Source: Giardia intestinalis
Taxonomy: Eukaryota
Assembly (NCBI GenBank): GCA_000002435.2
Contig: CM018793.1
Reading direction: 5' to 3' (one strand)
DNA length: 64,000 nucleotides
Shown: piece by piece, positions 1,606 through 48,292 of the stretch
How the letters are laid out: each line of letters opens with the position of its first letter
Position numbering within the stretch: the first letter of the stretch is position 1
Position numbers and translations under genes: made by a program
The notes under the pieces: generated by a model
What the model was told of the DNA's origin: nothing
The model's input: the letters and a program-made list of their open reading frames with translations, nothing else
Databases searched by the model: none

Positions 1606-1624
1606 GGGATCTCCCTTCGCTCTC

Positions 1625-1631: not shown

Positions 1632-1658
1632 ATAGGTTAAGAATTAATCATTGCAGCT

Positions 1659-3872: not shown

Positions 3873-3889
3873 GAAGTCCAGATTTATTA

Positions 3890-4564: not shown

Positions 4565-4591
4565 CTCTAAATTTAAAAGATTCACAGCGCC

Positions 4592-4933
4592 ATGCAGCCG
4601 TGGAACCCCGATTACCTCCCCCTCTATAAGGCTGTGAATAAAACGATGCAGAAGACGAGGTATACGACGCCGGATGCTCTGCTCAAAAGTGAGCAGGAGC
4701 TCTTTGGGCCCCTATTATCCAACCGTTTTGATCACCCAACGGCTTCCCCATTTTGCACGCGATACTGCGACCTAACTCTCGTTCCAGCTCCATACATGCT
4801 TCCCGAAGGTAGCATCCCTTTTTCAACGCCCGTCGCAGGATCTGTTTTGATGAGTGCTAACGCATCCACCAAAGCAACCATCACGGCCCTTCATGACCTC
4901 CCGGGTTATCTGGAGCAGCTTCAGCAGAAGTGA
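4592..4933 (+). CDS. small hypothetical ORF (113 aa) in the gap between two divergent genes
   Basis: ATG start, no domain, sits in a 378-nt spacer. It could be spurious. Confidence 0.25.
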   Translation: MQPWNPDYLPLYKAVNKTMQKTRYTTPDALLKSEQELFGPLLSNRFDHPTASPFCTRYCDLTLVPAPYMLPEGSIPFSTPVAGSVLMSANASTKATITALHDLPGYLEQLQQK

Positions 4934-4963
4934 TCGGAAGGAGTTTAGGGCCTCAAAAATTAA

Positions 4964-5665
4964 ATGGGTCTGGGTAGTATTTCTTGGTTCTACAAAGAGC
5001 CTCAGACCACCACGGTTCGGCTGTTTGACGTCTTTGCCCAGGGGAGAGACTATATTACTCGGTCAGATATCCGCCGCGCGCTTGCTGGATTGAAACTGAC
5101 GCCGACCGCTGACGAGGTCTCCGCCATATACCGCGAGGTAGAAGAGCTTTCTAGCATGACGCATCCAGAAGTATCAGAGAAGCTCGTTTATCCCATGTTT
5201 GAGGAGATGCGCCATGCCCCACCTTTCACACCTCTTTACTCCTGCACCTTGAATATATTGGCGGAATATATGAAGTATAACTGTGCTTACATTCACCGGG
5301 GCTATGTCACAGAGGACAGCATTGAGACCGCTCTTCTCAAGGAGTCGAAGAGCCCCGAGTTCATAGACAACGTGAAAAGAAATCTTCTGCAGCTCTCCTT
5401 CAACGTGCAGTTCAAGCTTGTGAGCGTCAGAGAGCTCTACTGCTTCATGAAACAGATCATCCCTAATAACTGGCGTCAGTACATATGCGAAAGCATACTA
5501 GAAAATGTTCCGATATCCACTATAGTAGAGAGCCTCTGTGAAGTGGGGTTCAATGAGAACACGGTGATCGAAACAGTCCGGCTCATTGCTAGCGAGGGAA
5601 TGGTGTCTGCATTTCCTGCGTTTCTAGAGAAGACATCCCAGGCCGTTGTTCATATCTATCAATAG
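4964..5665 (+). CDS. hypothetical protein (233 aa), possible EF-hand-like segment near N-terminus
   Basis: ATG at 4964 preceded by cctcaaaaattaa. FDVFAQGRDYITRSDIRRAL resembles an EF-hand loop (weak). Confidence 0.5.
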   Translation: MGLGSISWFYKEPQTTTVRLFDVFAQGRDYITRSDIRRALAGLKLTPTADEVSAIYREVEELSSMTHPEVSEKLVYPMFEEMRHAPPFTPLYSCTLNILAEYMKYNCAYIHRGYVTEDSIETALLKESKSPEFIDNVKRNLLQLSFNVQFKLVSVRELYCFMKQIIPNNWRQYICESILENVPISTIVESLCEVGFNENTVIETVRLIASEGMVSAFPAFLEKTSQAVVHIYQ

Positions 5666-5749
5666 CGGCAACGCCTGTAACATCCTAGCCCCACACCAGT
5701 GCGTGCCAGTAGAGCTGTGGTGGATCAGTTCAAGAGTAAATGGGGATGT

Positions 5750-7951
5750 TCACTGTGTCTCAGAAGCCGCTTGGAGGGTTATGTCGTAGACCGCAACTTC
5801 TCCGGAAAAGCCCGTCAGTACAACCTGGGAGCCGAGCTTACTCAGCCATACACTGGCACCGTTTACCCCGTTGCAGAACTGCGTGTCGGCTGGGATCCAA
5901 TCATCAGCCCCACAAACAAGAGACATGATCACTTCGTCGCCCTCGGTTTCGCATCCAGCACTTATCAGCACCTTGTCGTTGCAATCTATCATATACCTAC
6001 CTTTACGGTTAACGAAGACAGAAGATGGAAGGGCAATTGCCTGTACAGGGGCATCTACATCGAAGTCAAAGAACCGGAGAAGGCCGTCCACACACGCGCA
6101 AGCCAGCTCGTAGCGCCCCACAGGAACCTGGCTGATCGAATATGCAAAGCCATTCGACCCCCCTGGCAACTGACGGTTCTTTAACCGTTTGGGCTGTGCT
6201 GCGTTCTTCAAGTCATACGTGTGGATATAACCTTCAGAAAAGCTAGCGTGCAAGATGGTGGGGACCAGGATGTCACACTTGACGCTGAAGATGTGACAAA
6301 AGTTGCCTGTGATCTTTGCTAAGTAGGCTCCAGATGATGGGCTATATGTGAAGATCCCCCCGTCTGCGCCGCCAGAGGCAAGGAATTGGGAGTTAACATC
6401 CAAAGCTGAAACTGCTGCTCTATGTGCGTTTGGTATGTCAAAGAGTTTTCGTAACACAAAGCCCTCCCCTGCCACAGGGACCATCTTCAGTGCCGCAATG
6501 CTTCCATTGCTAAAGCCTACGTAGATAGTGTCCTCGAGTGTACAGATTGCTGTTGCAGCCGTGCTTGCTGAGGAGACTTGCATAGTTGCAATTAAAGAAG
6601 TGGGGTTATCTCGTGTCGCTGCAGAGCCAAGCCCAAGCAGATGCCAGACCTGCACGGTACCACTCTGGGTAGCGCCCACGAGATACTCTTGGCCGCCAAC
6701 AACAAGGCTACACGAAACAACAAGGGGTAATGTTGGAAATGAGAAAACAAGACTCCGTTGGCCCAGAGAAAAGCCTACTATGAGATTTGCGCTAGTGGGC
6801 GGGGCATCTGACTTTCGAAGAGGGGTCACGGTAAACTTGCGATCTTGTGGTCCGAAGTTATTGAAGCCCTGTTGCCCAGGAAGTTCCCCGACGTTGCCCC
6901 GCTTATTTAAGTAGACGGAATCGTACTTTTCTCGTGCCAGATCGCCTTGCAACATAGCTCGCTCTAGCTCAAAGCGGAATACAGCCCCAGAGCCTACTAT
7001 AGCGTACAAGCACGCGCCTGCAATGCAGTGCGAGAGACATGTGATAGAGGAAGATTCCATTGATAGGTCAGACACGACGTTAAAGAGCATGTCCTGCCCA
7101 TAGATCACTATGACGTCCCCGTCACTGGATGACAAAGCGTAGCATTCGGCAACTACAGGATATGTGCGCGATTCCTGTAATAGCAGTATACTGGTGACAG
7201 AGCACTTAAAGTACTTAAGGATAGTTCGCAAGGTGGAGGTCTTTAGATTGAATACACAAAGCTCCCCAGAGGGTGTGCCACAGAAACAGAAATCACCCGA
7301 GACAAGCCCAGTGGTAAACGTACGAACTGTGCCTGTTGTTGGCATGGCGATAGTTGAGGTAGTCATTTCATATGTAAGAGTTGCTCTATTGAAGACCAGA
7401 AGGTGGCTGTAAATCTTATTGTAATCTACTGAGACGAAGTTCATCGAAGGCCGAGGTTTCTTTGCTTCATCCGGAGCAATCTGGCCAAACGCAACAAATG
7501 TGTTGCAAGATGCATCCTTTGCGGTGAAGCGGCCTATAACGGTGTAATCATCACATGACCAACACGCAACGAGCCCACATGTCAATGAACATGCCGCCAA
7601 AAAGTGGGAGTCTGGCGAAAAGTCAATGAACCTAACTCCGGAGGGGAAAGCCTCGAGTACCACAGACTCGCCCGATTCGTAGGTCCAGAGGAAAATGCAA
7701 CTCTGGCCTGCTCCATCGGTATCTTGCCCGGAAGCAACATACTTCCCGCACGGTGAAACAGCCACTGTGGTAATTGTCTGTGTGTGCCCCGGAAATATGC
7801 GCTGCTCGCCTGTTTCCGGATTGTGTATGATTAGAAGCTTTCCCGTTGAATAGACAAGGGATCCAGAAGGATGGACTATGAAATTCCTGGCCTGAAAGGT
7901 GCCGAAAGAGGTGCTAATCCCGAGCAAGCTGTGGAGGCTAATCTCAGCCAT
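5750..7951 (-). CDS. WD40-repeat beta-propeller protein (733 aa)
   Basis: Repeated GH..(S/T)..V..SP.G..(L/V)ASG..D....W-type units throughout. ATG at 7949..7951. Confidence 0.65.
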   Translation of the reverse strand: MAEISLHSLLGISTSFGTFQARNFIVHPSGSLVYSTGKLLIIHNPETGEQRIFPGHTQTITTVAVSPCGKYVASGQDTDGAGQSCIFLWTYESGESVVLEAFPSGVRFIDFSPDSHFLAACSLTCGLVACWSCDDYTVIGRFTAKDASCNTFVAFGQIAPDEAKKPRPSMNFVSVDYNKIYSHLLVFNRATLTYEMTTSTIAMPTTGTVRTFTTGLVSGDFCFCGTPSGELCVFNLKTSTLRTILKYFKCSVTSILLLQESRTYPVVAECYALSSSDGDVIVIYGQDMLFNVVSDLSMESSSITCLSHCIAGACLYAIVGSGAVFRFELERAMLQGDLAREKYDSVYLNKRGNVGELPGQQGFNNFGPQDRKFTVTPLRKSDAPPTSANLIVGFSLGQRSLVFSFPTLPLVVSCSLVVGGQEYLVGATQSGTVQVWHLLGLGSAATRDNPTSLIATMQVSSASTAATAICTLEDTIYVGFSNGSIAALKMVPVAGEGFVLRKLFDIPNAHRAAVSALDVNSQFLASGGADGGIFTYSPSSGAYLAKITGNFCHIFSVKCDILVPTILHASFSEGYIHTYDLKNAAQPKRLKNRQLPGGSNGFAYSISQVPVGRYELACACVDGLLRFFDFDVDAPVQAIALPSSVFVNRKGRYMIDCNDKVLISAGCETEGDEVIMSLVCGADDWIPADTQFCNGVNGASVWLSKLGSQVVLTGFSGEVAVYDITLQAASETQ

Positions 7952-30027: not shown

Positions 30028-30165
30028 TTTACATCCTGAGTTCACTCCACTAACCAGTCAATTCCAGTGCTACTCCGCTAAGTTTCCTGTCTATAGGCGC
30101 GCTTCTGAATTCATACAAGCAAGCTCCTTTAATCCCTGACCATACCAGGAGACAGAAATAGGTCA

Positions 30166-33100
30166 CTCATGCGAACCGCCGCGCTGGACGGCCTCTCTCA
30201 CTCAGTTTCAATGCTTCGGTGCCGCGTATCTCTGGCGAAAACGGAAGAAGGCGGGCACCCCAGCACCCGACCCTCTGCGCCTTTGTAGGATGAGCGGTAC
30301 CACAGGCATGAAAGGAGGGGCCCTCACACCCACCGCCTCAGTGAAACTCCCTGCTGAAGAGAGCATGCTGCAGTGACGGGCCCCAAGATGGCTGACGTTA
30401 TCAGTAAAACTCTCCCTAACTGAGTCGCTTAAAGAATACAGAAACGGCTCACGAACGCGCCACTTCGTCGACGGGACTACGCCTCTAGGAACCTCCCGAC
30501 TTGTCTCCGTTACGTTGTCCACGGCGCCAAAGGCTGTGAGCGGCATCCCTGCATCTCCCGTTTGAAGAGCTTTTCCACGGGTAAGGAGCTCGAGCGATAC
30601 ATTTGGAAGCGTCTCTCCCGCCTCGGGCCCTCTCTACGCAGCCTCATTCGTCAAGCAATGCCCCAGTCGAAGGCCCCCTGTTGCCCTTCCATGCCTTTGT
30701 GATCGGCTAGTATTTCAGATCATACTACACCAAACCCTGGTGTCCAAGTGCAGGCGTTCCACATGGGCCACCACTGTTGCCTGTTATCCCCTCCAGTAAA
30801 GACGACGCTAGACCGGAGCACCTTCAAGCTCCTTGGAAGTCTTCAGATACAGCTCTTAGTTCTCGTCGCCAGAGTCACATCTGATTAGGATTAGCAAAGA
30901 TGAAAACCAGAACGCCATTACCATAACCAGGGCATGATAGAACTGGGTGGCCTCTACCATGCAGCAGGAAACAGATCCGTTCTCTCTGTGTCTTGTGCTC
31001 CCAGAAAAAACGGAACTCTCTATCACCAGCTGTCCCGGGTTCAGTCACAAATCCAAGGGATGCATAGATCACGACTCGTACCGATACACTGTGGATGCTG
31101 CAGCTCTCACAAAGAAGATGTCTCGACGCCATAACAAGAGCAGAGACCTCATGTGCACACATGAGCACCTGATAAAGGGTGTAGAGCTGATGCACGTCTT
31201 AGCTGAGAGATTGGGTGCGTTTCTGAGCACGCTGGCTGACATCAGATCGAGGGAATCCTACCTGTTCGCTGATCTAAATGCGTCAACCTAGGACGGCGCC
31301 CAGGAAGCATCTAGCCGAAGCAGAACACCCCATGTTGAGCGGCACCAGATGACAGTCACTCAAGCATGAGCAGGACGAGCATCTGCCCGCTCTGCACAAA
31401 ACTCACTGGAGCCAGAGCTGTCCAAATGTACTGCGGCACAGACAGCAAGTGCAAGGTGCTACTGCGCGAAAGGATGGAGATGGCAGAGGAGATGCACCTC
31501 GTCACACTGTGGACCGCTACATGAGCAACACCCACCAGAAGGTTCCGAACAAGAATAGGCCACCGAGCGCATGAAGGACCCCCGGCGAAGAGTAGCTGCC
31601 GCCCCATGGGGCTCCTCTCCCACGGGCCCCCTCGACCCGGACTCCTCAGAGGGGATCAGGGTAGCGTACGGGCTGCACCCTGGAGGGACACGAGCCCCCT
31701 GTTCTGCAGCCAGCGGAGAGCACGGGCATCTCTCCCAAGGTAACTGACGACGAGATGACCCGGGGGTCCGTCCATGGGTTCTCGAGGTCTCCTGGACCTC
31801 GCCTAGATCTGCGTACTGGAGGTCCTCATCCCCAAGAACGAGGCAAGCATAACCTGTGGAGCGACCACGACGGCTCTTCACAGATACTGCCGGGCCATCT
31901 GAAGTCTCAGGCACTGGACACTGGGGCCTGCATGCACATATAGTATGCGCTCGTATGCGCACACGAGACTGAGGAAGCCAGGCGGTCTCGCTCGATTACA
32001 GGGCGCCCTCAACAGCAGCCCCGGTCCTGCACAGTCTCGATCAGGGGAACGTGCCCCTCGCTCTAAGGAGCTACACGAGACCTTCCTCTGGCCACAGCAC
32101 ACATGGACTCAGTCCCGTGCAGTGTTCCTCAGGGACCCTCTAGGTATGCTCCTATGCTGCGCTGGACGGAACGCGCTCACTAAGCAGCTGAAGGAGGTGC
32201 CCCCTCAGTGCCTGCGCCGACGACGTACTGATCCTGCGCGACGACAACAACGAGGCAATGAGGTTGGCAAACCCACGGACTGACGATCAACACAGACAAC
32301 TTAAGAGCACCGAGGGGGTAGGAGGGCTCCTTCCTGGGTGTCCGGTCTCGAGGAGCGGCTACCCACGGCCTCCAAGGAGATAGAGAGGGTAACGAAAAGG
32401 TTGCAACTGTGTCAATCGCCCACCACCCAAGCCAAGCTGATCTGGATAGACTCACCACGCGACCCCTACGGATCCCTCGGAGGGCAGGCCTGCCCTCTGG
32501 ACGCCCGGCTCGAGCAACAGCGGACCGAGCTCCTGGCTACGCAGGACAGCGGCAGTCGGGAGTCCACCACAAGCAGCTGCGCGGTGCTTGACACCTCGAC
32601 GTGAGACGTGGCACATGGGCAGGCTGCCAGCGGGACAGCCTCGTGGTGAGCAACGCATCGTACACGAAACGTGCCCTGGTCGCTCCGATGCTTCAGATAA
32701 CGCCTCTCGGAGAGCTGTGACCGGGCCAGCCTCTCCGGCTGAACGACTCATGGCTCCACGTACACTCTGCGGTACGGATGGGTGCAGACCACACCAGCCG
32801 AGCCGGCACACTGCACAGGGTGTGGACCTGCGAGTGTGTACTGGCTGCTGACCACCTGGCACCACAGGTGCACTGCGGTTCATGAGCAGAAGGGCGAGCC
32901 GGGCGTCTCCTCCGCGCCAACCAGGGGTCGACATGAGGGTCCACGGGCACACGCTATAATCCAGGAGGACGCATGGCGAACGCACCCCGACGGTAGGATC
33001 GATGGTCCACTCCATGAGGAGGCGAGAAGGAACCCGAGTCGGCATTCCGAGGCCATGACACATGCGATCTTCGTCGTGGAGCACTACACCCTCAAGGCCA

Positions 33101-33414
33101 GACCGCCACGACTTGCGACAGGGCCCTGGGGCAGCGGTACCCACCAGGCGCCAGGCAGCAGCCGGCCCCATGGAGGTTGAGCAAAGGAAGGGAGAAGTCC
33201 ATCGAAGGCGCTGTGGAAAACTAGCAACAGCACGAAAGGGAGCCAAACAACATTAAACCTCTTCTTTTCCCATCAGAGCTGGACGGAGTCTGAATTTCGA
33301 ATGTCGGATTTTGGATGGTAAACAAGGAAGGACCTATCTGATGAGGTGGCGGATCGCGCGATGGACTTACTCGGACAGCGGCTAGCAAACCAGCCTCGGT
33401 GAAACAGAGAGTAA
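30166..33414. repeat. left arm of 3,249-bp inverted repeat (mirror of 35463..38711)
   Basis: Reverse-complement identity was verified by eye at both ends and at three internal spots. All ORF translations in the two arms are letter-identical mirror pairs. Coordinates obey x+y=68877. Confidence 0.9.
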
Positions 33415-33828
33415 CTCTTGGAACTATCTACAATATGGGATACATGTACTGACACGGCAATCCACTTGATAGGGACGAATCCATAGGCAGTTACGGCCCA
33501 GAATAGGGTAAACTACAAGTGGATACCGTTGTTTCGTAAAGGAAAGTTTACCTAACTCCTTGGATTTTATTAACTGCTCTATCTTACACAAGTTGCGCAG
33601 GAGTCCCAGTCAGCTACAGCGTTATATAATCTACCGTGTGCTTGGAGCCAGAATTCGAAGCCATATATACACTAAGCACTGTGTGCTACAAACTAATTAT
33701 ACAGAGTAAGAAGGGTACAACCACCCAGCGGAGCATATACTCTGACTACGGTGAGCTATAAACAAGATAATGTGAATTATAAAATATTTACCGTCACACA
33801 CATTCCGTTTACAGCAATTAAAACAAAA

Positions 33829-35370
33829 ATGTCTTTAGCCAAACTCGATGATGGGCGTAGCAGTCTTGAAGCTGGTGGTAGGTCGAGCGTAGAAGCCCGT
33901 CTCTTAGATGGAGAGGCTGACCTTGCATGGGCTATCGTGAATGGGCACAAAGAGATAATGAGGGTACTTTCAAAGTACGTTGGCTGGACTGACCTCATTT
34001 GTGCCGCTGCTCTTGGGAGCGTGAACAGGGTCATGGAGCACCTTGATGAGTGTGAAGAAAGGGACGTCAATGGTAGGACAGCCCTTATGTGGGCTGCTAT
34101 GAACGGGCATAAAGAGGTAGTGGAGATGTTAGTGGAGTATGGAAAGAAGATGGTTGATGACCAGGGTCATACTGCTCTGTACTACGCTCTCAAGGGTGGG
34201 TCTCTTGAGATTGCCAAAATACTTATACCTCACGAAAACCCAACCGATGAGAACGGCATCACGGCGCTCATGCGGGCTGCTACCGATAGAGACGCCGAAA
34301 TGGTGGAATTGCTTATACCACTCCAGAAGGGAATGAAGGATAAGGACGACAACACAGCGTTCGTGCATGCCCTCAAAAACAAACATACGGACATCGCTCT
34401 GCTTCTCCGCGGACATGAATCCCCCTCGTGGACTCCCTTGATGTGTGCTGCTTTCATCGGTGATGTCAAAGTAGCCAGAAGATATTTATCTAGCAAAGAT
34501 GAGAAGAATAATGATGGTAACACTGCGTTAGTACTTGCTGCGAGGGCAGGACATAGAGATATCGTAGAGCTTATTGATCCTATTGATGAGAACGGCATCA
34601 CGGCGCTCATGCGAGCTGTTGGTAGAAATGACGTGGAGGCTGTAAAAGCACTCTTACCCATCCAGAGGGGAAGAAAAACATACAAAGAGGTCACAATAAG
34701 CGGATGGTACATGCGCAAAGGAACAGCTCTGATGATGGCTGCGGCACATGGATACGCAGAAATAGTAGAACTGCTAGCAGAGCACGAAAAGGGAGAGAAA
34801 GTAGGCGGTTGGACCGCTCTCATATTCGCGGCACGGTGCAATCGTTCCAATGACCCCCTGGTGGACTATTCTAAGTGCGTTGAGCTCCTGGTAAAGCACG
34901 AGGGCGACATTTCAGGGTGGACGGATCTCATATATGCCGCTTACCGTGGCGATATTGACGCAGTCAGAAACAACCTTCATATGAAGGGAAGCCAGGATGC
35001 TGGTGGGTGGACAGCGCTTATGTATGCAGCAGCACGAGGGCACGAAGCGATTGTAGAGCTGCTCAAGCAAGAAACTCGTATGAAGAATAACGATCATCAG
35101 ACTGCCCTCATGTGGGCAGCACGCAATGATCATCCAGAGTGCGTCAGGCTCCTAATGAAGGACGAAGGCGGCATGCAAACGACCAAGGGCTGGACCGCCC
35201 TTATGAACGCAGCATATAGCAACACCGTGGAGTGTGCAAGGCTTCTTAAGGAAACCGAGAAAGATCTGAAGACAACCTGCAGCTGCCATGGTCACTCGCC
35301 TGGTACCACTGCTCTCGACATCGCTAAGAAGAAGGATCACAAAGAGATAGTAGACATCCTTTCAAGCTGA
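33829..35370 (+). CDS. ankyrin-repeat protein (Giardia protein 21.1 family), the only gene in the loop between the inverted repeats
   Basis: About 14 ankyrin units (G.TALM.AA..GH..IVELL). The ORF-track start at 33751 is a GTG. The ATG at 33829 is preceded by aaaacaaaa. Confidence 0.8.
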   Translation: MSLAKLDDGRSSLEAGGRSSVEARLLDGEADLAWAIVNGHKEIMRVLSKYVGWTDLICAAALGSVNRVMEHLDECEERDVNGRTALMWAAMNGHKEVVEMLVEYGKKMVDDQGHTALYYALKGGSLEIAKILIPHENPTDENGITALMRAATDRDAEMVELLIPLQKGMKDKDDNTAFVHALKNKHTDIALLLRGHESPSWTPLMCAAFIGDVKVARRYLSSKDEKNNDGNTALVLAARAGHRDIVELIDPIDENGITALMRAVGRNDVEAVKALLPIQRGRKTYKEVTISGWYMRKGTALMMAAAHGYAEIVELLAEHEKGEKVGGWTALIFAARCNRSNDPLVDYSKCVELLVKHEGDISGWTDLIYAAYRGDIDAVRNNLHMKGSQDAGGWTALMYAAARGHEAIVELLKQETRMKNNDHQTALMWAARNDHPECVRLLMKDEGGMQTTKGWTALMNAAYSNTVECARLLKETEKDLKTTCSCHGHSPGTTALDIAKKKDHKEIVDILSS

Positions 35371-35462
35371 TCCCAGAGTGAATGACAGACCCTTTTGCTG
35401 CACTCCACGCTAGTTATGGATCGTACATTATCTCTCTTGATGTCTAGTGGTACTCTACGCGT

Positions 35463-38400
35463 TTACTCTCTGTTTCACCGAGGCTGGTTTGCTAGCCGCT
35501 GTCCGAGTAAGTCCATCGCGCGATCCGCCACCTCATCAGATAGGTCCTTCCTTGTTTACCATCCAAAATCCGACATTCGAAATTCAGACTCCGTCCAGCT
35601 CTGATGGGAAAAGAAGAGGTTTAATGTTGTTTGGCTCCCTTTCGTGCTGTTGCTAGTTTTCCACAGCGCCTTCGATGGACTTCTCCCTTCCTTTGCTCAA
35701 CCTCCATGGGGCCGGCTGCTGCCTGGCGCCTGGTGGGTACCGCTGCCCCAGGGCCCTGTCGCAAGTCGTGGCGGTCTGGCCTTGAGGGTGTAGTGCTCCA
35801 CGACGAAGATCGCATGTGTCATGGCCTCGGAATGCCGACTCGGGTTCCTTCTCGCCTCCTCATGGAGTGGACCATCGATCCTACCGTCGGGGTGCGTTCG
35901 CCATGCGTCCTCCTGGATTATAGCGTGTGCCCGTGGACCCTCATGTCGACCCCTGGTTGGCGCGGAGGAGACGCCCGGCTCGCCCTTCTGCTCATGAACC
36001 GCAGTGCACCTGTGGTGCCAGGTGGTCAGCAGCCAGTACACACTCGCAGGTCCACACCCTGTGCAGTGTGCCGGCTCGGCTGGTGTGGTCTGCACCCATC
36101 CGTACCGCAGAGTGTACGTGGAGCCATGAGTCGTTCAGCCGGAGAGGCTGGCCCGGTCACAGCTCTCCGAGAGGCGTTATCTGAAGCATCGGAGCGACCA
36201 GGGCACGTTTCGTGTACGATGCGTTGCTCACCACGAGGCTGTCCCGCTGGCAGCCTGCCCATGTGCCACGTCTCACGTCGAGGTGTCAAGCACCGCGCAG
36301 CTGCTTGTGGTGGACTCCCGACTGCCGCTGTCCTGCGTAGCCAGGAGCTCGGTCCGCTGTTGCTCGAGCCGGGCGTCCAGAGGGCAGGCCTGCCCTCCGA
36401 GGGATCCGTAGGGGTCGCGTGGTGAGTCTATCCAGATCAGCTTGGCTTGGGTGGTGGGCGATTGACACAGTTGCAACCTTTTCGTTACCCTCTCTATCTC
36501 CTTGGAGGCCGTGGGTAGCCGCTCCTCGAGACCGGACACCCAGGAAGGAGCCCTCCTACCCCCTCGGTGCTCTTAAGTTGTCTGTGTTGATCGTCAGTCC
36601 GTGGGTTTGCCAACCTCATTGCCTCGTTGTTGTCGTCGCGCAGGATCAGTACGTCGTCGGCGCAGGCACTGAGGGGGCACCTCCTTCAGCTGCTTAGTGA
36701 GCGCGTTCCGTCCAGCGCAGCATAGGAGCATACCTAGAGGGTCCCTGAGGAACACTGCACGGGACTGAGTCCATGTGTGCTGTGGCCAGAGGAAGGTCTC
36801 GTGTAGCTCCTTAGAGCGAGGGGCACGTTCCCCTGATCGAGACTGTGCAGGACCGGGGCTGCTGTTGAGGGCGCCCTGTAATCGAGCGAGACCGCCTGGC
36901 TTCCTCAGTCTCGTGTGCGCATACGAGCGCATACTATATGTGCATGCAGGCCCCAGTGTCCAGTGCCTGAGACTTCAGATGGCCCGGCAGTATCTGTGAA
37001 GAGCCGTCGTGGTCGCTCCACAGGTTATGCTTGCCTCGTTCTTGGGGATGAGGACCTCCAGTACGCAGATCTAGGCGAGGTCCAGGAGACCTCGAGAACC
37101 CATGGACGGACCCCCGGGTCATCTCGTCGTCAGTTACCTTGGGAGAGATGCCCGTGCTCTCCGCTGGCTGCAGAACAGGGGGCTCGTGTCCCTCCAGGGT
37201 GCAGCCCGTACGCTACCCTGATCCCCTCTGAGGAGTCCGGGTCGAGGGGGCCCGTGGGAGAGGAGCCCCATGGGGCGGCAGCTACTCTTCGCCGGGGGTC
37301 CTTCATGCGCTCGGTGGCCTATTCTTGTTCGGAACCTTCTGGTGGGTGTTGCTCATGTAGCGGTCCACAGTGTGACGAGGTGCATCTCCTCTGCCATCTC
37401 CATCCTTTCGCGCAGTAGCACCTTGCACTTGCTGTCTGTGCCGCAGTACATTTGGACAGCTCTGGCTCCAGTGAGTTTTGTGCAGAGCGGGCAGATGCTC
37501 GTCCTGCTCATGCTTGAGTGACTGTCATCTGGTGCCGCTCAACATGGGGTGTTCTGCTTCGGCTAGATGCTTCCTGGGCGCCGTCCTAGGTTGACGCATT
37601 TAGATCAGCGAACAGGTAGGATTCCCTCGATCTGATGTCAGCCAGCGTGCTCAGAAACGCACCCAATCTCTCAGCTAAGACGTGCATCAGCTCTACACCC
37701 TTTATCAGGTGCTCATGTGTGCACATGAGGTCTCTGCTCTTGTTATGGCGTCGAGACATCTTCTTTGTGAGAGCTGCAGCATCCACAGTGTATCGGTACG
37801 AGTCGTGATCTATGCATCCCTTGGATTTGTGACTGAACCCGGGACAGCTGGTGATAGAGAGTTCCGTTTTTTCTGGGAGCACAAGACACAGAGAGAACGG
37901 ATCTGTTTCCTGCTGCATGGTAGAGGCCACCCAGTTCTATCATGCCCTGGTTATGGTAATGGCGTTCTGGTTTTCATCTTTGCTAATCCTAATCAGATGT
38001 GACTCTGGCGACGAGAACTAAGAGCTGTATCTGAAGACTTCCAAGGAGCTTGAAGGTGCTCCGGTCTAGCGTCGTCTTTACTGGAGGGGATAACAGGCAA
38101 CAGTGGTGGCCCATGTGGAACGCCTGCACTTGGACACCAGGGTTTGGTGTAGTATGATCTGAAATACTAGCCGATCACAAAGGCATGGAAGGGCAACAGG
38201 GGGCCTTCGACTGGGGCATTGCTTGACGAATGAGGCTGCGTAGAGAGGGCCCGAGGCGGGAGAGACGCTTCCAAATGTATCGCTCGAGCTCCTTACCCGT
38301 GGAAAAGCTCTTCAAACGGGAGATGCAGGGATGCCGCTCACAGCCTTTGGCGCCGTGGACAACGTAACGGAGACAAGTCGGGAGGTTCCTAGAGGCGTAG

Positions 38401-38711
38401 TCCCGTCGACGAAGTGGCGCGTTCGTGAGCCGTTTCTGTATTCTTTAAGCGACTCAGTTAGGGAGAGTTTTACTGATAACGTCAGCCATCTTGGGGCCCG
38501 TCACTGCAGCATGCTCTCTTCAGCAGGGAGTTTCACTGAGGCGGTGGGTGTGAGGGCCCCTCCTTTCATGCCTGTGGTACCGCTCATCCTACAAAGGCGC
38601 AGAGGGTCGGGTGCTGGGGTGCCCGCCTTCTTCCGTTTTCGCCAGAGATACGCGGCACCGAAGCATTGAAACTGAGTGAGAGAGGCCGTCCAGCGCGGCG
38701 GTTCGCATGAG
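35463..38711. repeat. right arm of 3,249-bp inverted repeat (mirror of 30166..33414)
   Basis: See left arm. Confidence 0.9.
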
Positions 38712-40115
38712 GAATTTATTCTGACAGCATTGAAATTCTTCTACAGGGGAGACCTCCTCCACTTCCACAGGATGCCCGTGGAGAGCGGCGCAGACGGCCC
38801 CCGCTCTGTCGGCACGTGCGAGCTGGCCCCTTCGACACACACGTTCTGCGCCCTGTACGAGACAGAGGGGGCCTTGCGGTGCGTCTTCACGGCCGTGGAC
38901 AGGGTGCGCCTGTTCCTCTGCATGGCGAGCACGCAGGTGAGTTCCGGCCGTCGTGCTGGGGTCGGGGGGAAGTCGCAGAGGGACCAGGAGGGGAAGCCTC
39001 GAACGGGTTAGCACCGCATAGGACTTCCTTCCATTGCCTAAAACACGCAAGGGTGCACGCGTCCACCCACTGAGCAGGCAGATGAGGCGATGACTGATGG
39101 CAGGGTGGCCAAGACTCACTTCTGCCCTCGGCCGAGCGACACATGAAATGAAGAGCGTTTGCATCTTAAACAGATAGATATTGTGTTTTTGCGAGGCGTC
39201 TTGTCTGGGCGGTTTTGGGTTGGAGGGGCTAGAGTTATTATTTGTGCGAGGGTTGTCATGCTCTAGTGGAAGAAAGAATACAACTCGAGATATGATTGAT
39301 TCTAGAAGAGTCAACCCCAGTGAATACACATCTCCCAAAGCATCAAGAGACGTGGGTGTTACACTTTCTTGTCGGTCAAAGAGGGAACCATTAGTAGAGA
39401 GGAAATCATAGCATCTGAGCGTCGATTCAGGCGCCCTGTACACGAGGGTGCACGTTGTTCCCGTTGAAATGGGGGAGTAGTGATCGGCGGAAAGAACCTC
39501 AGGCTCAGCGTAGTTAGCAGAAGCACTTGGAGAGGAATAAACACAATACTTAGCCATCCCCAGGTCTGCAAGAAAAGCAGAGCCGTTGCCATCCAGAAGA
39601 ATGTTCGACGGCTTGACGTCTCTGTGTGCGATCCCCAGTCTGTGAAGGTTCCGAAGACAAGTAACCACAGAGTGCCAGAAGAACACCATCTGGGACAGTG
39701 TAAAGCTGCTTACTAAGTTGTACGTTCGGAACCTTTCACAGTCGTGTGGATAGAGCGGAGTGACAAGGCAGATTAGCGAAGAGCAGTTCTCGAAATGCTT
39801 CGCAAAGGGTAAGTCTTTCGTTGTATCATCGAGTCGTAATTTGAAGCTCGAGATAAGATCGATTGCAGGATTCTTAAAAGGCTGGCCGCCAGCCGTAACC
39901 TGAGCCAGGTATGCGAGTAAGGTCACTTCACGCAGCACCAGATGGTTGAAAACGCCTGAAATGCCGACAGCCTTGAGAGCAACAGGTTTGCCCGTCTCCT
40001 TATCTATCCCCTTGTAGATCGTGCCGTACGCGCCTGCTCCGAGGTACCCTGTGGGTGACCAGTCGATCGCATACCGCTCGAGGGAAGAGGGGATGGTCGG
40101 CTGTGGCTCGGTCAT
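38589..40115 (-). CDS. Ser/Thr protein kinase (catalytic motifs intact); the 3' end of the ORF is uncertain because it runs through GC-rich low-complexity sequence into the right repeat arm
   Basis: GAGAYGTIYKG, VALKAV, HRDVKPSNILL, DLGMAK, YRAPE. The ORF-track start (40217) is a TTG that reads through the tRNA. The ATG at 40113..40115 gives MTEPQPT. The kinase domain ends near 39300. Confidence 0.6.
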   Translation of the reverse strand: MTEPQPTIPSSLERYAIDWSPTGYLGAGAYGTIYKGIDKETGKPVALKAVGISGVFNHLVLREVTLLAYLAQVTAGGQPFKNPAIDLISSFKLRLDDTTKDLPFAKHFENCSSLICLVTPLYPHDCERFRTYNLVSSFTLSQMVFFWHSVVTCLRNLHRLGIAHRDVKPSNILLDGNGSAFLADLGMAKYCVYSSPSASANYAEPEVLSADHYSPISTGTTCTLVYRAPESTLRCYDFLSTNGSLFDRQESVTPTSLDALGDVYSLGLTLLESIISRVVFFLPLEHDNPRTNNNSSPSNPKPPRQDASQKHNIYLFKMQTLFISCVARPRAEVSLGHPAISHRLICLLSGWTRAPLRVLGNGRKSYAVLTRSRLPLLVPLRLPPDPSTTAGTHLRARHAEEQAHPVHGREDAPQGPLCLVQGAERVCRRGQLARADRAGAVCAALHGHPVEVEEVSPVEEFQCCQNKFLMRTAALDGLSHSVSMLRCRVSLAKTEEGGHPSTRPSAPL

Positions 40116-40130
40116 CAAAACAAGGGAAAG

Positions 40131-40203
40131 TGCCGGGGCCGGGAATCGAACCCGGACCGATCGGACGACAACCGAGCGCGCTAGACCGTTACGCCACCCC
40201 AGC
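40131..40203 (-). tRNA. tRNA-Asp (anticodon GUC), 73 nt
   Basis: I folded it by hand. Acceptor GCUGGGG/CCCCGGC with one G.U pair and discriminator A. U8. D-arm GCGU/GCGC with loop AACGGUCUA (A14, G18 G19, A21). Anticodon stem CUCGG/CCGAU with loop UUGUCGU. Variable loop CGGU. T-arm CCGGG-UUCGAUU-CCCGG. Confidence 0.65.
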
Positions 40204-40217
40204 CAGGGAGGAAACAA

Positions 40218-41285
40218 ATTAAAGATTATATAAAATATTTGGTTTAATAGAAATTATTTGTAATAGAGTATTTGTAATTTTATTGGTTTATCCTAACTTT
40301 TTCTGACAATCGTTCACTCCCTAAAATAGACACCTTTTAGGCACTAGCATCGTAAACGGTGCAGGACATAAGATCTAACATGCGTTGAAAGTTTCATCAC
40401 ACTAAATCTTCATAACCAACAAACTGGACAAAGTTCTTTTTGGAACTATTTAACTATCTGTCCAGTGCCTTAAAAAGATTTACTCTTCATTGCTATTGCC
40501 AAATTCAGGGTAATTCTAGCATTATACTCTGTACAACTCGGTCTCTTGCCAGATAAACATATTTACTATCGGCAATAACTTTGCTAGGTTACATGTAATA
40601 TAGCGAATGTTTATCGTACAATAATTGAAATTAGGCCTGTTGTCCACAAAAGTAATTTATTCTTAAAGTTACTCATTCTCTTCTAATGGAGTACTGTGCA
40701 CACAGTTCCTCTCTACTTATAAAAAGTTGACATTTGGATGCAACAACATCTTAACCAGCCTTGTAGAAAGAATCTCTATGTATGAAGCACTTCTAAGAAA
40801 TGTATTATAGTAACAACTTAAATAACATCAGACCTGTTTTAGTGTTTACCGTTGTGTTAGTCAATATTTTTATAACCATAAACAATTCTAGAGCAATTCT
40901 CCACGACAATATACCGCAGACTTCATAAGTGGTAACTATAAATTTATTCTACAATGGCACTACTACGGTTTTAAAGAAAATTGCTTCCTCATGAAACTTA
41001 CTGACTGGTTAGAAACAAAACTATTTATCATTAATTGATAATCATTAGAACTCCAGGCAGTATCTTTCAAATAACTCCCCGTTGCTTCTAATATATAGTG
41101 AGGGAATATTTACCACTTGTAAGATTATTTGAAAAGTTCATTAAATAGCACTTCCAATATCAGCATCTCTTACATTGAATAAATTTAGATGTTATTTGAA
41201 CAGAAAATTATCTTTAAACTTACTATTAATAGTCATCATATAGTGCTAAAAGCAATGGAGACAAGGATATCTGATAGAGGAGCGT
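40218..41285. other. about 1.07-kb strongly AT-rich, ORF-free island, compositionally anomalous for Giardia
   Basis: By eye about one third G+C, against about half in the flanking genes. No ORF longer than 60 aa. Bounded by the tRNA on one side and a GC-rich retroelement remnant on the other. Confidence 0.6.
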
Positions 41286-41299
41286 CATGTATGAGTTTC

Positions 41300-44200
41300 T
41301 ATATGTGGTGCCGCTGAGGCTTGTCGCGGTGCGGTCCAGAAATCTCACGGGCAAGCCTCGCTCAGTCCCTGACCAGCTCGGAGACGAAGGTTGGCTGCGG
41401 GCGTGCACATCGATCTTTTCGAGGTTTTCTTACGGGCTCGCTGGTCTACTAGGGTGCCTCTCCCTGTTCTCCCTTCACGATTGGCGAAGCTCTGGTCTTT
41501 GTTGTCATTCTCAATACTGTCCATGTAGATCAGCAGCAGCTAACGGGGCCCTCTCCACTGGCTGGGATTCCACTCGGTTGTGTGTCCAGTCTTGCGCCCC
41601 CTTTCGGTCGTTGTCGACAGGTCCCAGGGATGGATTCATTCGGTTGTCAGAAGTAGGATGACAGGAGGCGGTCGCTCTGGGTGGCCAGGCTTTCGGCCCG
41701 GTCGCGTCTGATCAGCTTCGTCAGGTGCTCGTTCGCCTCTGCAGCCATGTGGGCGATGGCGAAGGCAGCCCGGACAGAGAGCTTCTCGACGTCCACGTGG
41801 AGCTCCTCGAGGTGCCTCTTGGACCTGGGGTGGAGGGATCCGTCCGTCTCATAGATGATCGGGAGCGTCCCGTCCCTGTACTTCTTGGCCTTCTCGCTGT
41901 GGTATCCATCTGGCGGGGCTGGATGACACCCACGTCCACTGCCTTGCACTTGTCGACGAGCCAGATGTCGGGCTTCTGGTTCTGGTCGCTGAGGTGGCTG
42001 TGGGTCTTGACTTCCAGCTCCGGTTGAGCTTCCCCGAGACGCGGAGGTACAGGTACGCGACGATCATGTTGTGCCTCGTGGTCGAGGGTCTGCCGTGTGG
42101 CAGCCCGGGCAGGTGCCTCTTGTCTGCGCCATGATCGAGCCATCTCTCTCCTTCAGGGCCCTTTCCTCCTCGGTCAGCACGCCGCCGCTCTGTCCGGAAG
42201 CTGATGTGTGCGCGTGAGGAGGCGGTTGAAGTAGGTCCCCTTCCCCTGCAGTGCCTGGCCGCCCACCGACAGCTCCACCGGGTCCCTGGTCCCCTTGTTG
42301 ACGTCCGGGGAGGCCCATGCCCTCCGCAGCTCGTCGTGGCAGAGCCCCGGCATGAGCAGGCCCAGGCCGCTCTTCTCCTTCGGGTACGCCAGGAAGTCGA
42401 CCAGGCGATCGCAGCTTCTGCTGGTTAGCTTGTTGAAGCCTTGTGCGACGTCTGTCGAGCTCCTCGTAGTCCGCCTTGTCCGATGTCATCTCGACCAGGG
42501 GGGCGTAGTTCACCATCGGGACCACGCAGAGTGACAGCAGGATGAGCTTCTGGTGGGTGGTTATGGGGGCAGTCTCGGCACCTGCGATGGCCTTTGGTGC
42601 GGGACTGGCTGGAGTGGGGGACACCGGGTGGCTGAGGAAGGTCACCTCCTCGCCCGCCATGGTGGACTTGCATTTGTCGCTCCTTATCGTCAGGTCCATA
42701 GCCTGCTGTACTATTGCGCCTGCTGGGTAGGCCTCATCGTGGAGCGCCACGATGTCGTCTGCATAGGCAAGGAAGGCGATGCCTCTCTCCGTGAGGCGTC
42801 TCAGAGGCGCTCGATGGCCATGCAGAAGAGGAGCGTGCTGAGCGGGTCGTCCTGGGGGACGCCGCAGACCCCGCACTTCACGTCCTTGCTGTGCCTCAGG
42901 TCGAGGAAGTTCCTGATGTAGTCGACCAGGACCTTCGGGATGCCCGCCTCGTTCAGGGCTCTGACGACCTCTGCCCTCGGGAGCGAGTTGAAGGCCTTCT
43001 TTGTGTCGAGGGAGACGGCGTGCACCTGTCCTGCTGATGAGCTCGTGGGCCCTCCTCATGCCTACCGCGTATGCGTTCTGCATGAAGGCGATCTGTTCGC
43101 ACGAGAGGTAGTTGGCATGCTTGATCAGCCGCTTCAGCAGGACGCGGTGGAAGATGTTTGTCACCGTCTCGCCATCGCGATCGGACGGTATCCGTCGGAC
43201 TCCTTCGGGATGAGGATCGCCCGGAACTCGAACATGGCCATCACGTCGGACATCGCCTCGGGGTGGGTGGTCAGCTCGTTGTACGCCTGCGTGAGGTACT
43301 TCACGAAGTCGTCGTTCTGCTTCCTCGCTTTGAGCTGGACCGCCCGAGGCCTTCTTGTTGAGGGTCCCAACAGGGCCTTCCTCATTTCTTCTTCGGTTGC
43401 CGGCTCCAGCCCGTTGAGCTCATCGATGGAGGGTAGTCAAGGCTAACGTAGCCTTCGGGGGGACGCACGGGTGTAACGCGCTGAGGGCGGCCTTGGCTTT
43501 CTCCGGCTTGATGTCAACCATGGGCGTATCATCAAGGGCGCGGAGAGCCTTGGCAACTGCTCCGAAGCTCAGCGCGTTACTCACCCTGTTTGCTATCCGG
43601 CGCCTCGCCTTCTCGGGGTCTGGGTCTGCCTTACTCTGGGACTGCTCCGTGGTGTTGCTTGAGTCCTCCAGGCCTCCTACCAGGGCGTTCAGGCCCCTGA
43701 TTGCGGGGAGCGCGACCCCAGTCCCGGGCTGCTCGATGCTCGCGATCATGCGCGCACCCTGGTGGATGAGCATGGCAGCTGTCTGGTTCGGTATGTGGGA
43801 CGGAAGGATCGGTTTGTCGTCGCCCGGTACTCTGTGTCTGTCGTTGTTTGCTTCTCTTAGATGCTCGGTTGGTTGCTTGGCACCCTCGCACGGTAGGCCA
43901 CAGAGCCAGCGTGTGTGTCCTGCCGAGAGGGCAAACGTCTTCGGAGTGGTCTCCCAAGTAGAACCTCACGATTGCTCTCTGGGGCCCGGAGGTACGATCT
44001 TGCGTTCATGATGTGGATCGGGTCTTCGCGGGCTCTCCTTCGCCTCAGATCCAGCTGTGCACACTCCCAGTCTGGGCACACACCCGCAGAACAGCTGAGG
44101 AACGCAATAGCTCCTCCCTTCCACTACTGTGGTCATTATCATATTCCATAGCCAACCCTCGTCTCCGGACATCGCCAAAAATTGAGTGGGAATTTACTCG

Positions 44201-44347
44201 CGAGATTTGCGGACAGCACCCGCAGGCGAGGGCCCCAGCAGCACACCACTGGAAGCAACCGGTGGGTGGAGTAAATGATGAGCGAGGATGCCGTTCAACA
44301 TAGTGACTCGTACGATGGACTTACTCAGACTGCGGCCAGCAAACCAA
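41300..44347 (-). mobile_element. degenerate non-LTR retrotransposon remnant (dead GilD/Genie-like element) with a frame-shifted reverse transcriptase
   Basis: All minus strand. RT motif 1 ILIPKESDGYRPIAM is near 43165..43210. Motif A LDTKKAFNSL is near 42985. Motif B GVPQDDPLSTLLF is near 42869. Motif C FLAYADDIVAL is near 42765, followed by SDKCKS...FLSHP. These lie in different frames with an in-frame stop at about 43158. Confidence 0.6.
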
Positions 44348-44397
44348 CTTCTTTTTGAAGAGAAACGACAGATTTATTCATGAGACTACAGAGCAGT

Positions 44398-45279
44398 CTA
44401 TTGGTCATTGCAACCATTGACACTAGGTGTACTGCCCCTAAGGAGAGACGCTATCTCGAGGTATCCCCTAGAAGTAATCTTGTCAAAGAAATATTCATTA
44501 GACTTGTCTATCAGATGCCCCTCTTTTTCTAATAGAAGCTTTACCACTTCTAAGTGACCCTTTAGCGCTCTATGTTCAAGAGCAGTCATCTCATTCCTAT
44601 CCTTTACACCCCCCTCCAGATCTACTAACAATCTTGCTATTTCCACGTTCCCCATAGAAGCCGCGTTCATAAGCGCAGTCATACCTACCATGTTTTGTGC
44701 ACCACTGTCGTATCTTATTACCAACTTTGCTGTCTCTATGCAACCGCGTGTGGCTGCTCGCATAAGCCTCGTGTCGCCGAATGTATCGGTTGGCTCAAGA
44801 ATATTCACAATAATTTTGTGCCCTGCCTCCTTAGCAATCATCAGGGCCATCTTGCCTTCGCTGTCGATTAAGTTCTCCTCGTACGGAATCAGAACAGAAG
44901 CAGCCTCCGCATGGCCCTCCTGTGCGGCGATCATCAGAGCAGTACGGCTGTTCTTGTTTCTTCTCCCACATTCGTAAGGGGCAAGAATTTCAACTACCTC
45001 AGGGTGGTTGTTGTGTGCGGCGTGCATGAGTGCAGTCCAGCCGTTCTTGTCCTGGAGGCCCCTCTCTTCCTCAACAAGCAACTCGACGGGATCAGCGTGC
45101 CCCTGCTCGTCGCGCTGATCAACACCGAGTCTTTCTTCAAGCAGCATCCGGACGGTCTCTGTGTTATTCGTGTGCGCGGCACGCATCAGCCTGGGCAGCA
45201 AAAGGAGGCTGGACTGAGGGCCAGCCATATTCACTCTGTCATCGAACTGTGCAAGCCTACTCTCCAGTGCCTTAATCAT
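44398..45279 (-). CDS. ankyrin-repeat protein (293 aa), probably the C-terminal part of a disrupted NEK-ankyrin gene
   Basis: About 8 ankyrin units. ATG at 45277..45279 lies immediately downstream of the stop of the kinase-tail fragment. Confidence 0.55.
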   Translation of the reverse strand: MIKALESRLAQFDDRVNMAGPQSSLLLLPRLMRAAHTNNTETVRMLLEERLGVDQRDEQGHADPVELLVEEERGLQDKNGWTALMHAAHNNHPEVVEILAPYECGRRNKNSRTALMIAAQEGHAEAASVLIPYEENLIDSEGKMALMIAKEAGHKIIVNILEPTDTFGDTRLMRAATRGCIETAKLVIRYDSGAQNMVGMTALMNAASMGNVEIARLLVDLEGGVKDRNEMTALEHRALKGHLEVVKLLLEKEGHLIDKSNEYFFDKITSRGYLEIASLLRGSTPSVNGCNDQ

Positions 45280-45281
45280 AG

Positions 45282-46294
45282 CTAGATGTTCCTTACTTTG
45301 GTCTTCAAGTGCGTCGATCTAGTGGATTTAGTCTTAACATCCTCTTCCAGCAGCGCGATCCTGGCGTTAGCGCCATTCAGCGCAGCCTCCAAGGATCCGC
45401 ACTTATACTTCAGCATCACGCACTGACCCCCCAACTCACTAACTGGGATGTCGAATGTAGTGAGCGTCTCATGCAGCTCCCTGACCATCGGCCTCCTCTC
45501 TGGCTCCAGCACGAATATCCTCTCCAGAACACTCTTTATGAATCCATCAGTGAGACCGCTCAGGTCCGGCCTCCACCCGTCACGAAGACCTCTGCCGGCT
45601 CCTTGCCCCCCAAGAAGTCCGGTCTCCTCAGAGTTACTAATTCATAAATGATGACCCCGAGGCTCCATACGTCGGAGGCAGGGCTGGCCTCGTTGTGGAG
45701 GAGCACCTCGGGGGCAACGTATGCCATTATTCCTATGAGAGTGCTCCCGCATCTCAGGGCGTCCTTGCAGAGGCTGAAGTTGGCGATGACGAAGCGCTCT
45801 CCGTCTGCGCTAATAAGGACGTTGGCAGGCCTGAGGTTGCGGTGGACAAACCTCCTAGTATTTGCTCCATTGACACCGTGGAGGTAGGCGAGGGCGGCGG
45901 CAAGCTGCCTCACAATTGAGAGGATCACAGCGATAGGGACGAGGTTCTTCCTTCGCTTGTGCTCGGCGAGGAGGCGCTCAAGGGTCTTGTCGTGCCGGTC
46001 CATGACGACATAGATGAGGCCCTCGTCTTCGACTACTTGGTGGTGCTTGAGGACTCCTGGGTGGGAGAGGGTAAGGATGACGGTCAATCTTGTCTTGATG
46101 GCGTCCAGATCCCCCTTGTCCAGGCCGTCGATGAGGATCTCCTGCACAGCGAGGTCCGGAAAGTCCTTGAGGGAGTAGACTGTCACCATAGTGCTTTCAT
46201 TAAGCACATCACCTAACCGCTCATGAAGCTCCCTAGGGGTGAACGGTAAGACACTGACAGCTGTTGTTGCAGGCTCAGACGAGGAAGTGTCCAT
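45282..46294 (-). pseudogene. NEK-like kinase domain split by a frameshift near 45520..45560 and a stop at 45282 (pseudogene or sequencing error)
   Basis: Fragment 45560..46294 carries HRNLRPANVL, ANF (DFG position), APEV and DVWSLGVIIYEL. Fragment 45282..45512 carries the subdomain XI-like LEPERRPMVRELHE in another frame. Confidence 0.5.
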
Positions 46295-47698: not shown

Positions 47699-48292
47699 CT
47701 ACGCTTTGCCCCGGCAGAGGAACCACCAGCAGAGGAAGCCGACGAGGCCCCCGACGACGATGACAGCGGCCACAGCGATGCCAGCTATGGCGCCCGTGGA
47801 AAGGCCGCTCTTGTTGACGCTAGAAGGCACGCACTTTTTATCATCACCTAGAACAAATCCGTCGTTACACTCTGTACACGTGCCGTCGGGACATGACTTG
47901 CAGTTAGGAAGATCGCAGCCAGCGGGCGCGTCCGCGCAAACACGCTCGTTCGCGGTGGGGCCGTACGGGCACTCGTCGTAGCATCCGCCCTTGTAGAGGC
48001 TGTGCGCGCCCGTGCATGCAGTGCACGTCCCTGCCTTATCGCTTGTACCGGCCGTGCACATGCCCGCGTCCGTCTTCGCCTTGCACTCCCCGTTCACCGG
48101 GACCTTGTCCCCTGTGCACTTGGAGCAGAAGGTCTGGCCCCCGATTTCCACGTTGCAGCTGTCGGCGGCGCAGTTTGTCGCGCCGGGGTTTGCGGCGGCG
48201 CACGGCGTTGGGTTTGTCTTTGCTTTACTTGCTGTTTGCGACGCCAAGGCCATTTGCAGGGCCAAGCTTACAAAAATAAGCTTATCGAACAT
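47699..48292 (-). CDS. VSP: variant-specific surface protein (short VSP, 197 aa)
   Basis: Signal peptide, repeated CxxC motifs, GGCY motif, a single C-terminal TM helix and the invariant cytoplasmic tail CRGKA. Confidence 0.85.
   Translation of the reverse strand: MFDKLIFVSLALQMALASQTASKAKTNPTPCAAANPGATNCAADSCNVEIGGQTFCSKCTGDKVPVNGECKAKTDAGMCTAGTSDKAGTCTACTGAHSLYKGGCYDECPYGPTANERVCADAPAGCDLPNCKSCPDGTCTECNDGFVLGDDKKCVPSSVNKSGLSTGAIAGIAVAAVIVVGGLVGFLCWWFLCRGKA

Follow-up and report, generated by a model that had tools for sequence, protein, structure and literature searches.

The minus strand of a 64,000-nucleotide (nt) stretch of Giardia intestinalis contig CM018793.1 (assembly GCA_000002435.2), referred to below as the window and numbered from its first letter, carries one degraded retrotransposon of the class without long terminal repeats (non-LTR) at approximately 44355-41305 (three-frame reading of about 44400-41250). 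This copy is very probably a decayed fossil of GilD (= Genie 2), the dead non-LTR family of Giardia. A pseudogenised non-LTR element of the Gil/Genie type had been proposed at 41300-44347 in an original prediction made from the letters alone; its limits are close to those derived here, and its classification is borne out by the reverse transcriptase (RT) and endonuclease domains, the many frameshifts and the neutral decay. The family itself is already known, having been described in the WB isolate more than 20 years ago.

For the RT domain (42625-43214, on the minus strand like all features of the element), the four canonical blocks were identified as motif 1 (LIPKESDGYRPIAM, 43214-43173), motif A (SLDTKKAFNSL, 43013-42981), motif B (GVPQDDPLSTLLFCMA, 42863-42816) and motif C (FLAYADDIVAL, 42774-42742), followed by the peptides SDKCKS (42681-42664) and FLSHP (42639-42625). 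Every peptide quoted in the original prediction was located on the minus strand and in the order given there. Its claim that the core RT motifs occupy three frames holds for the whole open reading frame (ORF) but not for the four blocks, as motif C is read in a different phase from motifs 1, A and B, which agree with one another, and the third phase is seen only in the endonuclease region (RHNMIV, 42076-42059). A single piece of 74 residues (42801-43025) clears the gathering score of the Pfam RVT_1 profile (31.8 bits, E = 1.5e-7), and a conceptual protein stitched from the pieces on either side of the frame changes covers RVT_1 positions 1-204 of 205 with 81.2 bits (E = 1.1e-22; protein residues 184-381), an end-to-end match obtained with no intact ORF being assembled. 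Chance is rejected as the origin of this motif cluster, being ruled out by the matches of both the single piece and the stitched protein. The best relative of the stitched protein among solved structures is the R2 retrotransposon protein 9nl2 (E = 2.6e-7).

Downstream of the RT, the segment 41782-42111 holds what is left of a CCHC zinc knuckle and a region that, from its sequence, is classed as the remnant of an R2-type restriction-like endonuclease. The corresponding motifs of the window copy are scattered over three frames and partly deleted: CPGCH (42111-42097), RHNMIV, the catalytic PD motif KPDIWLVDKCKAVDVGV (KPDIWLV…VDVGV, 41975-41925) and EKAKKY (41895-41878), with a 40-nt deletion at about 42083 having removed the His and the last Cys of the CCHC knuckle. 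They are easier to follow in the consensus of four copies, where the C-terminus reads CPGCHTARTLDHDMNC … RHD … KPDIWLVDKCKAIDVGV … EKVKKY, corresponding to the pattern C-x2-C-x7-H-x3-C, RHD, KPD-x12-D and K..KY, and the columns C-x2-C…H…C, RH(D/N), PD…D and K..KY are invariant in alignments of diverse relatives. As a first profile of this region held R2-like sequences and was partly circular, a non-circular one was built from the Giardia consensus and its five nearest relatives with R2 sequences excluded. This profile matched residues 933-1037 of R2Bm (8gh6), the zinc-knuckle and restriction-like endonuclease part, with E = 1e-9, and its top five matches were all R2 proteins. The endonuclease segment by itself gave no phmmer match among PDB sequences, and an AlphaFold2 model of the 125-residue segment computed without an alignment was unusable (predicted local distance difference test, pLDDT, of 43). 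An endonuclease remnant at this place was also part of the original prediction, in which the domain was correctly recognized but its catalytic PD was not: the PDGYH peptide it quoted (41913-41899) lies in a different frame from the real motif KPDIWLVDKCKAVDVGV, and its ETDGS (41850-41836) and VDVEK (41796-41782) fall in the distal part of the domain.

The overall layout of the element was established by comparison with five contigs carrying relatives (L001, from an assemblage B isolate, and L002-L005). The collinearity of the window with the relatives extends across three frames in tblastn alignments with the proteins P0001, from the assemblage B isolate, and P0002 and P0004, from the assemblage A2 isolate DH. 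A degraded single ORF (41647-44060) represents the C-terminal ~810 codons of the family protein with about 10 frame switches, and ends at the natural stop codon at 41647-41649 (…LLSSYF*). Position 44060 is the exact start of homology to the assemblage B ORF, at codon 319 of that ORF, and the window copy is without approximately 2 kb of N-terminal coding sequence. The ORF is followed by a 3' untranslated region (41397-41646), which is 85-88% identical to the DH copies as far as 41418-41435, and by a degraded, partly deleted 3' inverted arm (41308-41396) recognized by local alignment to the 5' arm. On the other side lies the 5' inverted arm (44056-44278), which reproduces the family's ~220-nt 3' terminus in reverse complement, and then an outermost stretch (44279-44355), which is bounded upstream by the stop codon (44398-44400) of a NEK/ankyrin pseudogene and contains a 44-nt motif (44308-44351). 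The ends of the element are inverted, and it is not flanked by long direct repeats. Over 44278-41418 the DH copies are 85-88% identical to the window copy, rising to 92-95% in the coding core, and the assemblage B copy is 76% identical. Searches of the window with the element (tblastx and blastn) found no second copy of this young family, and only the 44-nt motif was matched elsewhere.

For the lesions, the majority consensus of four assemblage A copies was taken as the reference. The window copy is 95.8% identical to it (about 4% substitutions) and differs by 21 insertions or deletions (indels), all but one of which break the frame; approximately 15 are left after events at alignment edges are discounted. 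The damage of at least one stop and one frameshift listed in the original prediction was therefore real but under-counted. The stop that it placed near 43158 is found at 43161-43163, where it results from a 1-nt deletion at about 43173 and not from a nonsense substitution, and the frameshift that it reported from motif B to motif C goes back to the loss of 1 nt at 42804. Stops derived from substitutions are absent from the 491 codons between motif A and the end of the ORF. Some lesions are shared by subsets of the copies and some by all four, with most being private to the window copy, including deletions of 7, 17, 21, 22 and 40 nt. Since the consensus of the four copies restores an uninterrupted frame of 561 codons that begins upstream of motif A and ends at the natural stop, the copies have decayed largely independently from a functional gene.

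Programmed frameshifts do occur in retroelements, and an ORF of 366 codons is present in the window copy (42064-43164), which could suggest that the frame changes are functional and that a protein is still made through programmed frameshifting or read-through. However, this ORF is mostly out of register with the family protein, and about 10 frame switches would be required, at lesions most of which are private to this copy. The deletion within the CCHC knuckle, the missing N-terminal 2 kb and a neutral spread of substitutions over codon positions also stand against such expression. An intact gene or a programmed-frameshift gene was thus rejected on the number of frame switches and the neutral substitutions, and we give this explanation practically no credence; the window copy cannot encode a protein.

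The substitution patterns distinguish the decay of this copy from the earlier history of its lineage. Private substitutions of the window copy relative to the assemblage A consensus are spread evenly over codon positions 1, 2 and 3 (18/21/17, p = 0.79), and codons with a single difference are nonsynonymous in 33 cases and synonymous in 12, an even spread that points to neutral decay in place. Between the assemblage A consensus and the assemblage B copy, the corresponding counts are 71/48/161 (p = 2.5e-17), with 124 synonymous and 54 nonsynonymous single-difference codons, a pattern that indicates past purifying selection on the active lineage. The private deletions of 17, 22 and 40 nt are edged by short imperfect direct repeats, as judged by eye and without statistical control, for instance GGCCTCAGG/GGCCTCGGG and a repeated GACCACGA. 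Disruption of GilD members by microhomology-mediated deletions has been reported (PMC2861651, citing Arkhipova & Morrison 2001), with which the repeats seen here would be compatible.

The inverted ends, together with the missing ~2 kb of N-terminal sequence, are the features on which the original prediction was silent, even though it had the element class right. The 5' arm of the window copy recurs, in inverted orientation, directly past the 3' end of the relatives on L002 (88%), L003 (91%), L004 (3838-4057, 92%) and L005 (6065-6285, 95%), and its outer edge (...TTTACTCCACCCACCGG) is common to all copies. Within single copies, the two arms pair over 170 nt at 98% in L002, over 94 nt at 100% in L005 and over at least 220 nt in L004, and the assemblage B copy also has a 3' arm. 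In the window copy the 5' arm is intact, but the 3' arm is far more degraded: 41396-41308 and 44150-44244 align with a score of 37, compared with 17.3 +/- 2.2 (maximum 29) in 200 shuffles (z of about 9), the similarity to the 5' arm being approximately 70% over about 90 nt. The same segment is 80% identical to an arm variant at positions 479-574 of L005. Its outer part is considered missing, because the other copies cease to be homologous at about 41305.

Two forms of the element can be recognized from these copies. L005 holds a long copy of about 5 kb (1307-6285) that keeps the N-terminal 2 kb, and its first ORF (P0160, 861 codons) begins with MSGDEGW at an ATG inside the outer arm, with the AT-rich initiator-like stretch CAATTTTTGGCG located just before it. 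The same stretch and an ATG at 44172-44170 (MSGDEGW...) are found in the 5' arm of the window copy. After the arm, P0160 continues for ~2 kb through an N-terminal coding part in which zinc-finger-like motifs occur; this part is missing from the window copy, which keeps only the last finger-like stretch of the N-terminal region. C2H2-like patterns occur in both P0001 and P0160, the only zf-C2H2 Pfam match being a faint one on P0160. In the short form, represented by the window copy and those on L002-L004, the 5' end is the reverse complement of the whole ~220-nt 3' terminus, and the junction falls at the same point in all of them, with window position 44060 corresponding to approximately codon 685 of the long form. 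Because this junction is common to at least four paralogous copies, the rearrangement happened once and the short form multiplied afterwards, which may have involved retrotransposition in trans or DNA duplication.

Several features of the compared contigs accompany these copies. The L002-L005 copies are each split into several ORFs. The assemblage B copy (L001 1-3327, AHHH01000232.1) has an open frame of 1108 codons through the putative zinc fingers and the RT and is frameshifted only in the endonuclease part, so that decay of the family seems less advanced in assemblage B than in assemblage A. A second partial copy occupies the contig end at L005 1-609, head-to-head with the long copy, and its diverged arm is the one that resembles the 3' arm of the window copy (80%). 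Around the element on the DH contig L004, an inverted repeat of at least 890 nt (163-1052 / 3887-4773, 86-99%) runs well past the element ends into a flank with a fragment of a variant-specific surface protein (VSP) gene, so that the whole contig is palindromic with the RT body in its centre. The 44-nt motif beside the 5' arm also lies, inverted, directly beyond the 3' arm in L002, a DH copy, and a large palindrome elsewhere in the window carries it at its inner ends (33354-33397 and 35480-35523, 84%); the motif may be either element or target sequence.

The paired arms raise the question of a role for the fossil at the RNA level, whereby arms with an initiator and an ATG would give sense and antisense RNA, or a hairpin, that feeds RNA interference and silences related copies. 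The better-preserved copies do have arms with the AT-rich stretch and the ATG at both ends, 98-100% identical within L002 and L005. In addition, small RNAs from Giardia retrotransposons have been reported (PMC10999387), as has the transcription of another Giardia non-LTR element into double-stranded RNA (PMC1950533). The 3' arm of the window copy, however, retains only the limited similarity described above, its ATG/initiator region is mutated, and no signal of constraint was seen in this copy. We therefore regard such co-option as improbable, and a plain fossil as the better description.

For the family assignment, the close relatives of the stitched protein are confined to hypothetical proteins of Giardia duodenalis, namely P0001 (1108 residues, 67% identity) and P0002-P0004. 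In an exhaustive HMMER search with P0001, the next relatives were only 27-35% identical, and included the Giardia protein P0016, annotated as 'Reverse transcriptase/endonuclease' (34%), RTs of Spironucleus salmonicida (29%) and RT/endonucleases of Hexamita inflata (27%). At these identities, the family forms a diplomonad lineage distinct from the other annotated Giardia RT/endonuclease. Three non-LTR families are reported from WB, two of them telomeric (GilM and GilT) and one represented by dead copies only (PMC10999387; PMC2861651), and GilD members are located in gene-poor regions adjoining VSP genes (PMC2861651). VSP genes adjoin four of the five related loci (L001-L004). The family studied here fits GilD/Genie 2 because it is dead in every copy examined, interstitial, only 34% identical to P0016 and found beside VSP genes.

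A decayed copy of one of the telomeric, still intact families (GilM or GilT, i.e. Genie 1) that moved to an internal site would share the host and the domain order, with the RT followed by the CCHC knuckle and restriction-like endonuclease. P0016 is nevertheless only distantly similar, in contrast to the dead DH copies with 92-95% identity in the coding core, although P0016 is equated with GilM/GilT by its annotation name only. Moreover, the one copy in the window is broken and interstitial, neither a head-to-tail array nor tandem repeats are present, and the flanks of the copy consist of ordinary genes, a tRNA and a VSP gene. The telomeric origin was rejected on the low identity to P0016 and the lack of an array, and appears very improbable to us.

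Several points weigh against the assignment to GilD/Genie 2 as a dead family and should be read together with it. The family name rests on elimination and context rather than on alignment to deposited sequences, and the elimination takes P0016 as GilM/GilT-type from its annotation name. The limits of ~41305-44355 are approximate, having been derived from homology to other copies and not from an empty target site. An orthologous empty site was sought through the adjacent ankyrin ORF, which is part of the NEK pseudogene, and none was found, the best homologue being 55% identical and no close orthologue being present. The microhomology at the deletion edges is short and imperfect. The copy is most likely without function at present.

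Homology shows that the active ancestor encoded one protein with an RT and a C-terminal CCHC knuckle with a restriction-like endonuclease, preceded by putative N-terminal zinc fingers. By analogy with R2, it would have inserted by target-primed reverse transcription, with the endonuclease cutting a nick into the target, onto which the RT then copies RNA of the element. In the short form of ~3 kb, approximately 2 kb of 5' coding sequence is replaced by an inverted copy of the ~220-nt 3' terminus, through a single rearrangement after which the short form multiplied to different loci. After insertion of the window copy, neutral decay accounts for the ~4% substitutions, the ~15-20 frame-breaking indels, the deletions of 7-40 nt and the loss of most of the 3' arm. 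A more elaborate proposal is that the short form is a non-autonomous derivative of one fold-back (snap-back) template switch, in which nascent cDNA copied its own 5' end; that it was mobilised in trans; that its initiator arms drive convergent transcription and give double-stranded RNA; and that its relics may seed homogenised palindromes. What makes a template switch appealing is the exactness with which the 5' arm repeats the 3' terminus in inverted form. Candidates for palindrome seeding, if the proposal were true, would be a perfect 3.26-kb inverted repeat at 30-39 kb of the window and the one of at least 890 nt that surrounds the L004 copy; taken as a whole, we consider the proposal speculative and rather unlikely.

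With regard to the genomic surroundings, the proteins flanking the element are identical to WB C6 entries (n = 5), e.g. GL50803_0016978, an OTU-like protease, a WD40 protein and a NEK kinase. What seemed to be separate genes immediately upstream of the element is one NEK kinase-ankyrin pseudogene (44401-46066, minus strand), with NEK homologues collinear over three frames (46066-45581, 45617-45318 and 45318-44401) and therefore two frameshifts. A short VSP gene (47699-48290, minus strand, frame open back to 48418) ends with ...CWWFLCRGKA* and matches the Pfam VSP profile with 97 bits; it is located 3.3 kb from the element, in a stretch without any ORF of at least 220 codons. On the other side, a tRNA-Asp (GTC) at 40130-40203 (minus strand) was identified by ARAGORN and by Rfam (57 bits) and overlaps a mechanically called ORF at 38589-40217. 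Between the tRNA and the truncated 3' end, 40230-41300 is an AT-rich (38% GC), gene-free segment of about 1 kb, which is odd for the compact genome of Giardia, and no homologue of it was found in the fetched loci L001-L005. Over 29000-49500, Rfam gave only the tRNA and Tandem Repeats Finder gave nothing.

The region also contains a perfect (100%) inverted repeat of 3,258 nt (30157-33414 / 35463-38720), whose spacer (33415-35462) holds an ankyrin-repeat gene (33751-35370). Its arms are GC-rich and ORF-poor, gave no Pfam match in six-frame scans, and share only the 44-nt motif with the young and long copies at the DNA level. Each arm nevertheless contains a collinear, very decayed RT relic in which motifs A, B and C are represented (arm 2: minus strand, 36408-36904), with combined E values of 3e-4 to 1e-3 against a best value of 0.023 in 20 shuffles, and positions 32491-33293 of the window are 76% identical to L003 5600-6402. 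That the arms are perfectly identical around so ancient a relic implies that the palindrome formed recently, that gene conversion took place or that the assembly is at fault. The minus-strand ORF at 38589-40217 has a Pkinase match only at residues ~150-250, and its low-complexity C-terminal third enters arm 2 (38589-38720); the kinase gene may be truly shorter, or may have been cut by the palindrome.

As to what these results add, a heavily frameshifted retroelement was recognisable from raw sequence, but little biology is gained from a fossil that is ordinary for the Giardia genome. Three results are of modest value: the lesion map of this copy, the numerical contrast between its neutral decay and the purifying selection that preceded it, and the single rearrangement junction across the short copies, which is relevant to how copies of a 'dead' family could go on multiplying. 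The perfect palindrome nearby, with its older RT relics, is the more curious feature and may bear on the remodelling of variable, VSP-rich regions of the genome.

Compared with known systems, GilD/Genie 2 is the closest. GilD was reportedly described by Arkhipova and Morrison in 2001 and Genie 2 by Burke, Malik, Rich and Eickbush in 2002; in the latter study, Genie 2 copies reportedly have inverted repeats as long as ~172 bp. The family examined here likewise has terminal inverted repeats (170 nt at 98% in L002). Both GilD/Genie 2 and the window copy belong to the WB genome (WB clone C6, ATCC 50803), all copies are degenerate with frameshifts and internal deletions, and both are located near VSP genes in gene-poor, pseudogene-rich stretches (PMC2861651). 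No difference contradicting membership was found, the window copy being without most of its 3' arm. GilM and GilT (Genie 1) share the host and the element class, but are reported as intact, head-to-tail arrays at chromosome ends (PMC10999387), unlike the single, interstitial and dead window copy, and P0016, the annotated Giardia RT/endonuclease, is only about 34% identical to the family.

The R2 elements (R2Bm, R2Tg and relatives) have the same order of N-terminal zinc fingers (putative in the Giardia family), RT, CCHC knuckle and PD-(D/E)xK endonuclease, and among solved structures it is R2 proteins that best match the RT as well as the endonuclease. Identity is nevertheless only about 25-30%, and the Giardia family differs in its location outside 28S rDNA, its inverted terminal repeats and its restriction to diplomonads. 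The nearest relatives outside Giardia are the RT/endonucleases of Spironucleus salmonicida and Hexamita inflata (27-29%), which share the CCHC-RH(D/N)-PD…D…K tail but differ in belonging to other diplomonads and in having intact long ORFs of 1186-1212 residues.

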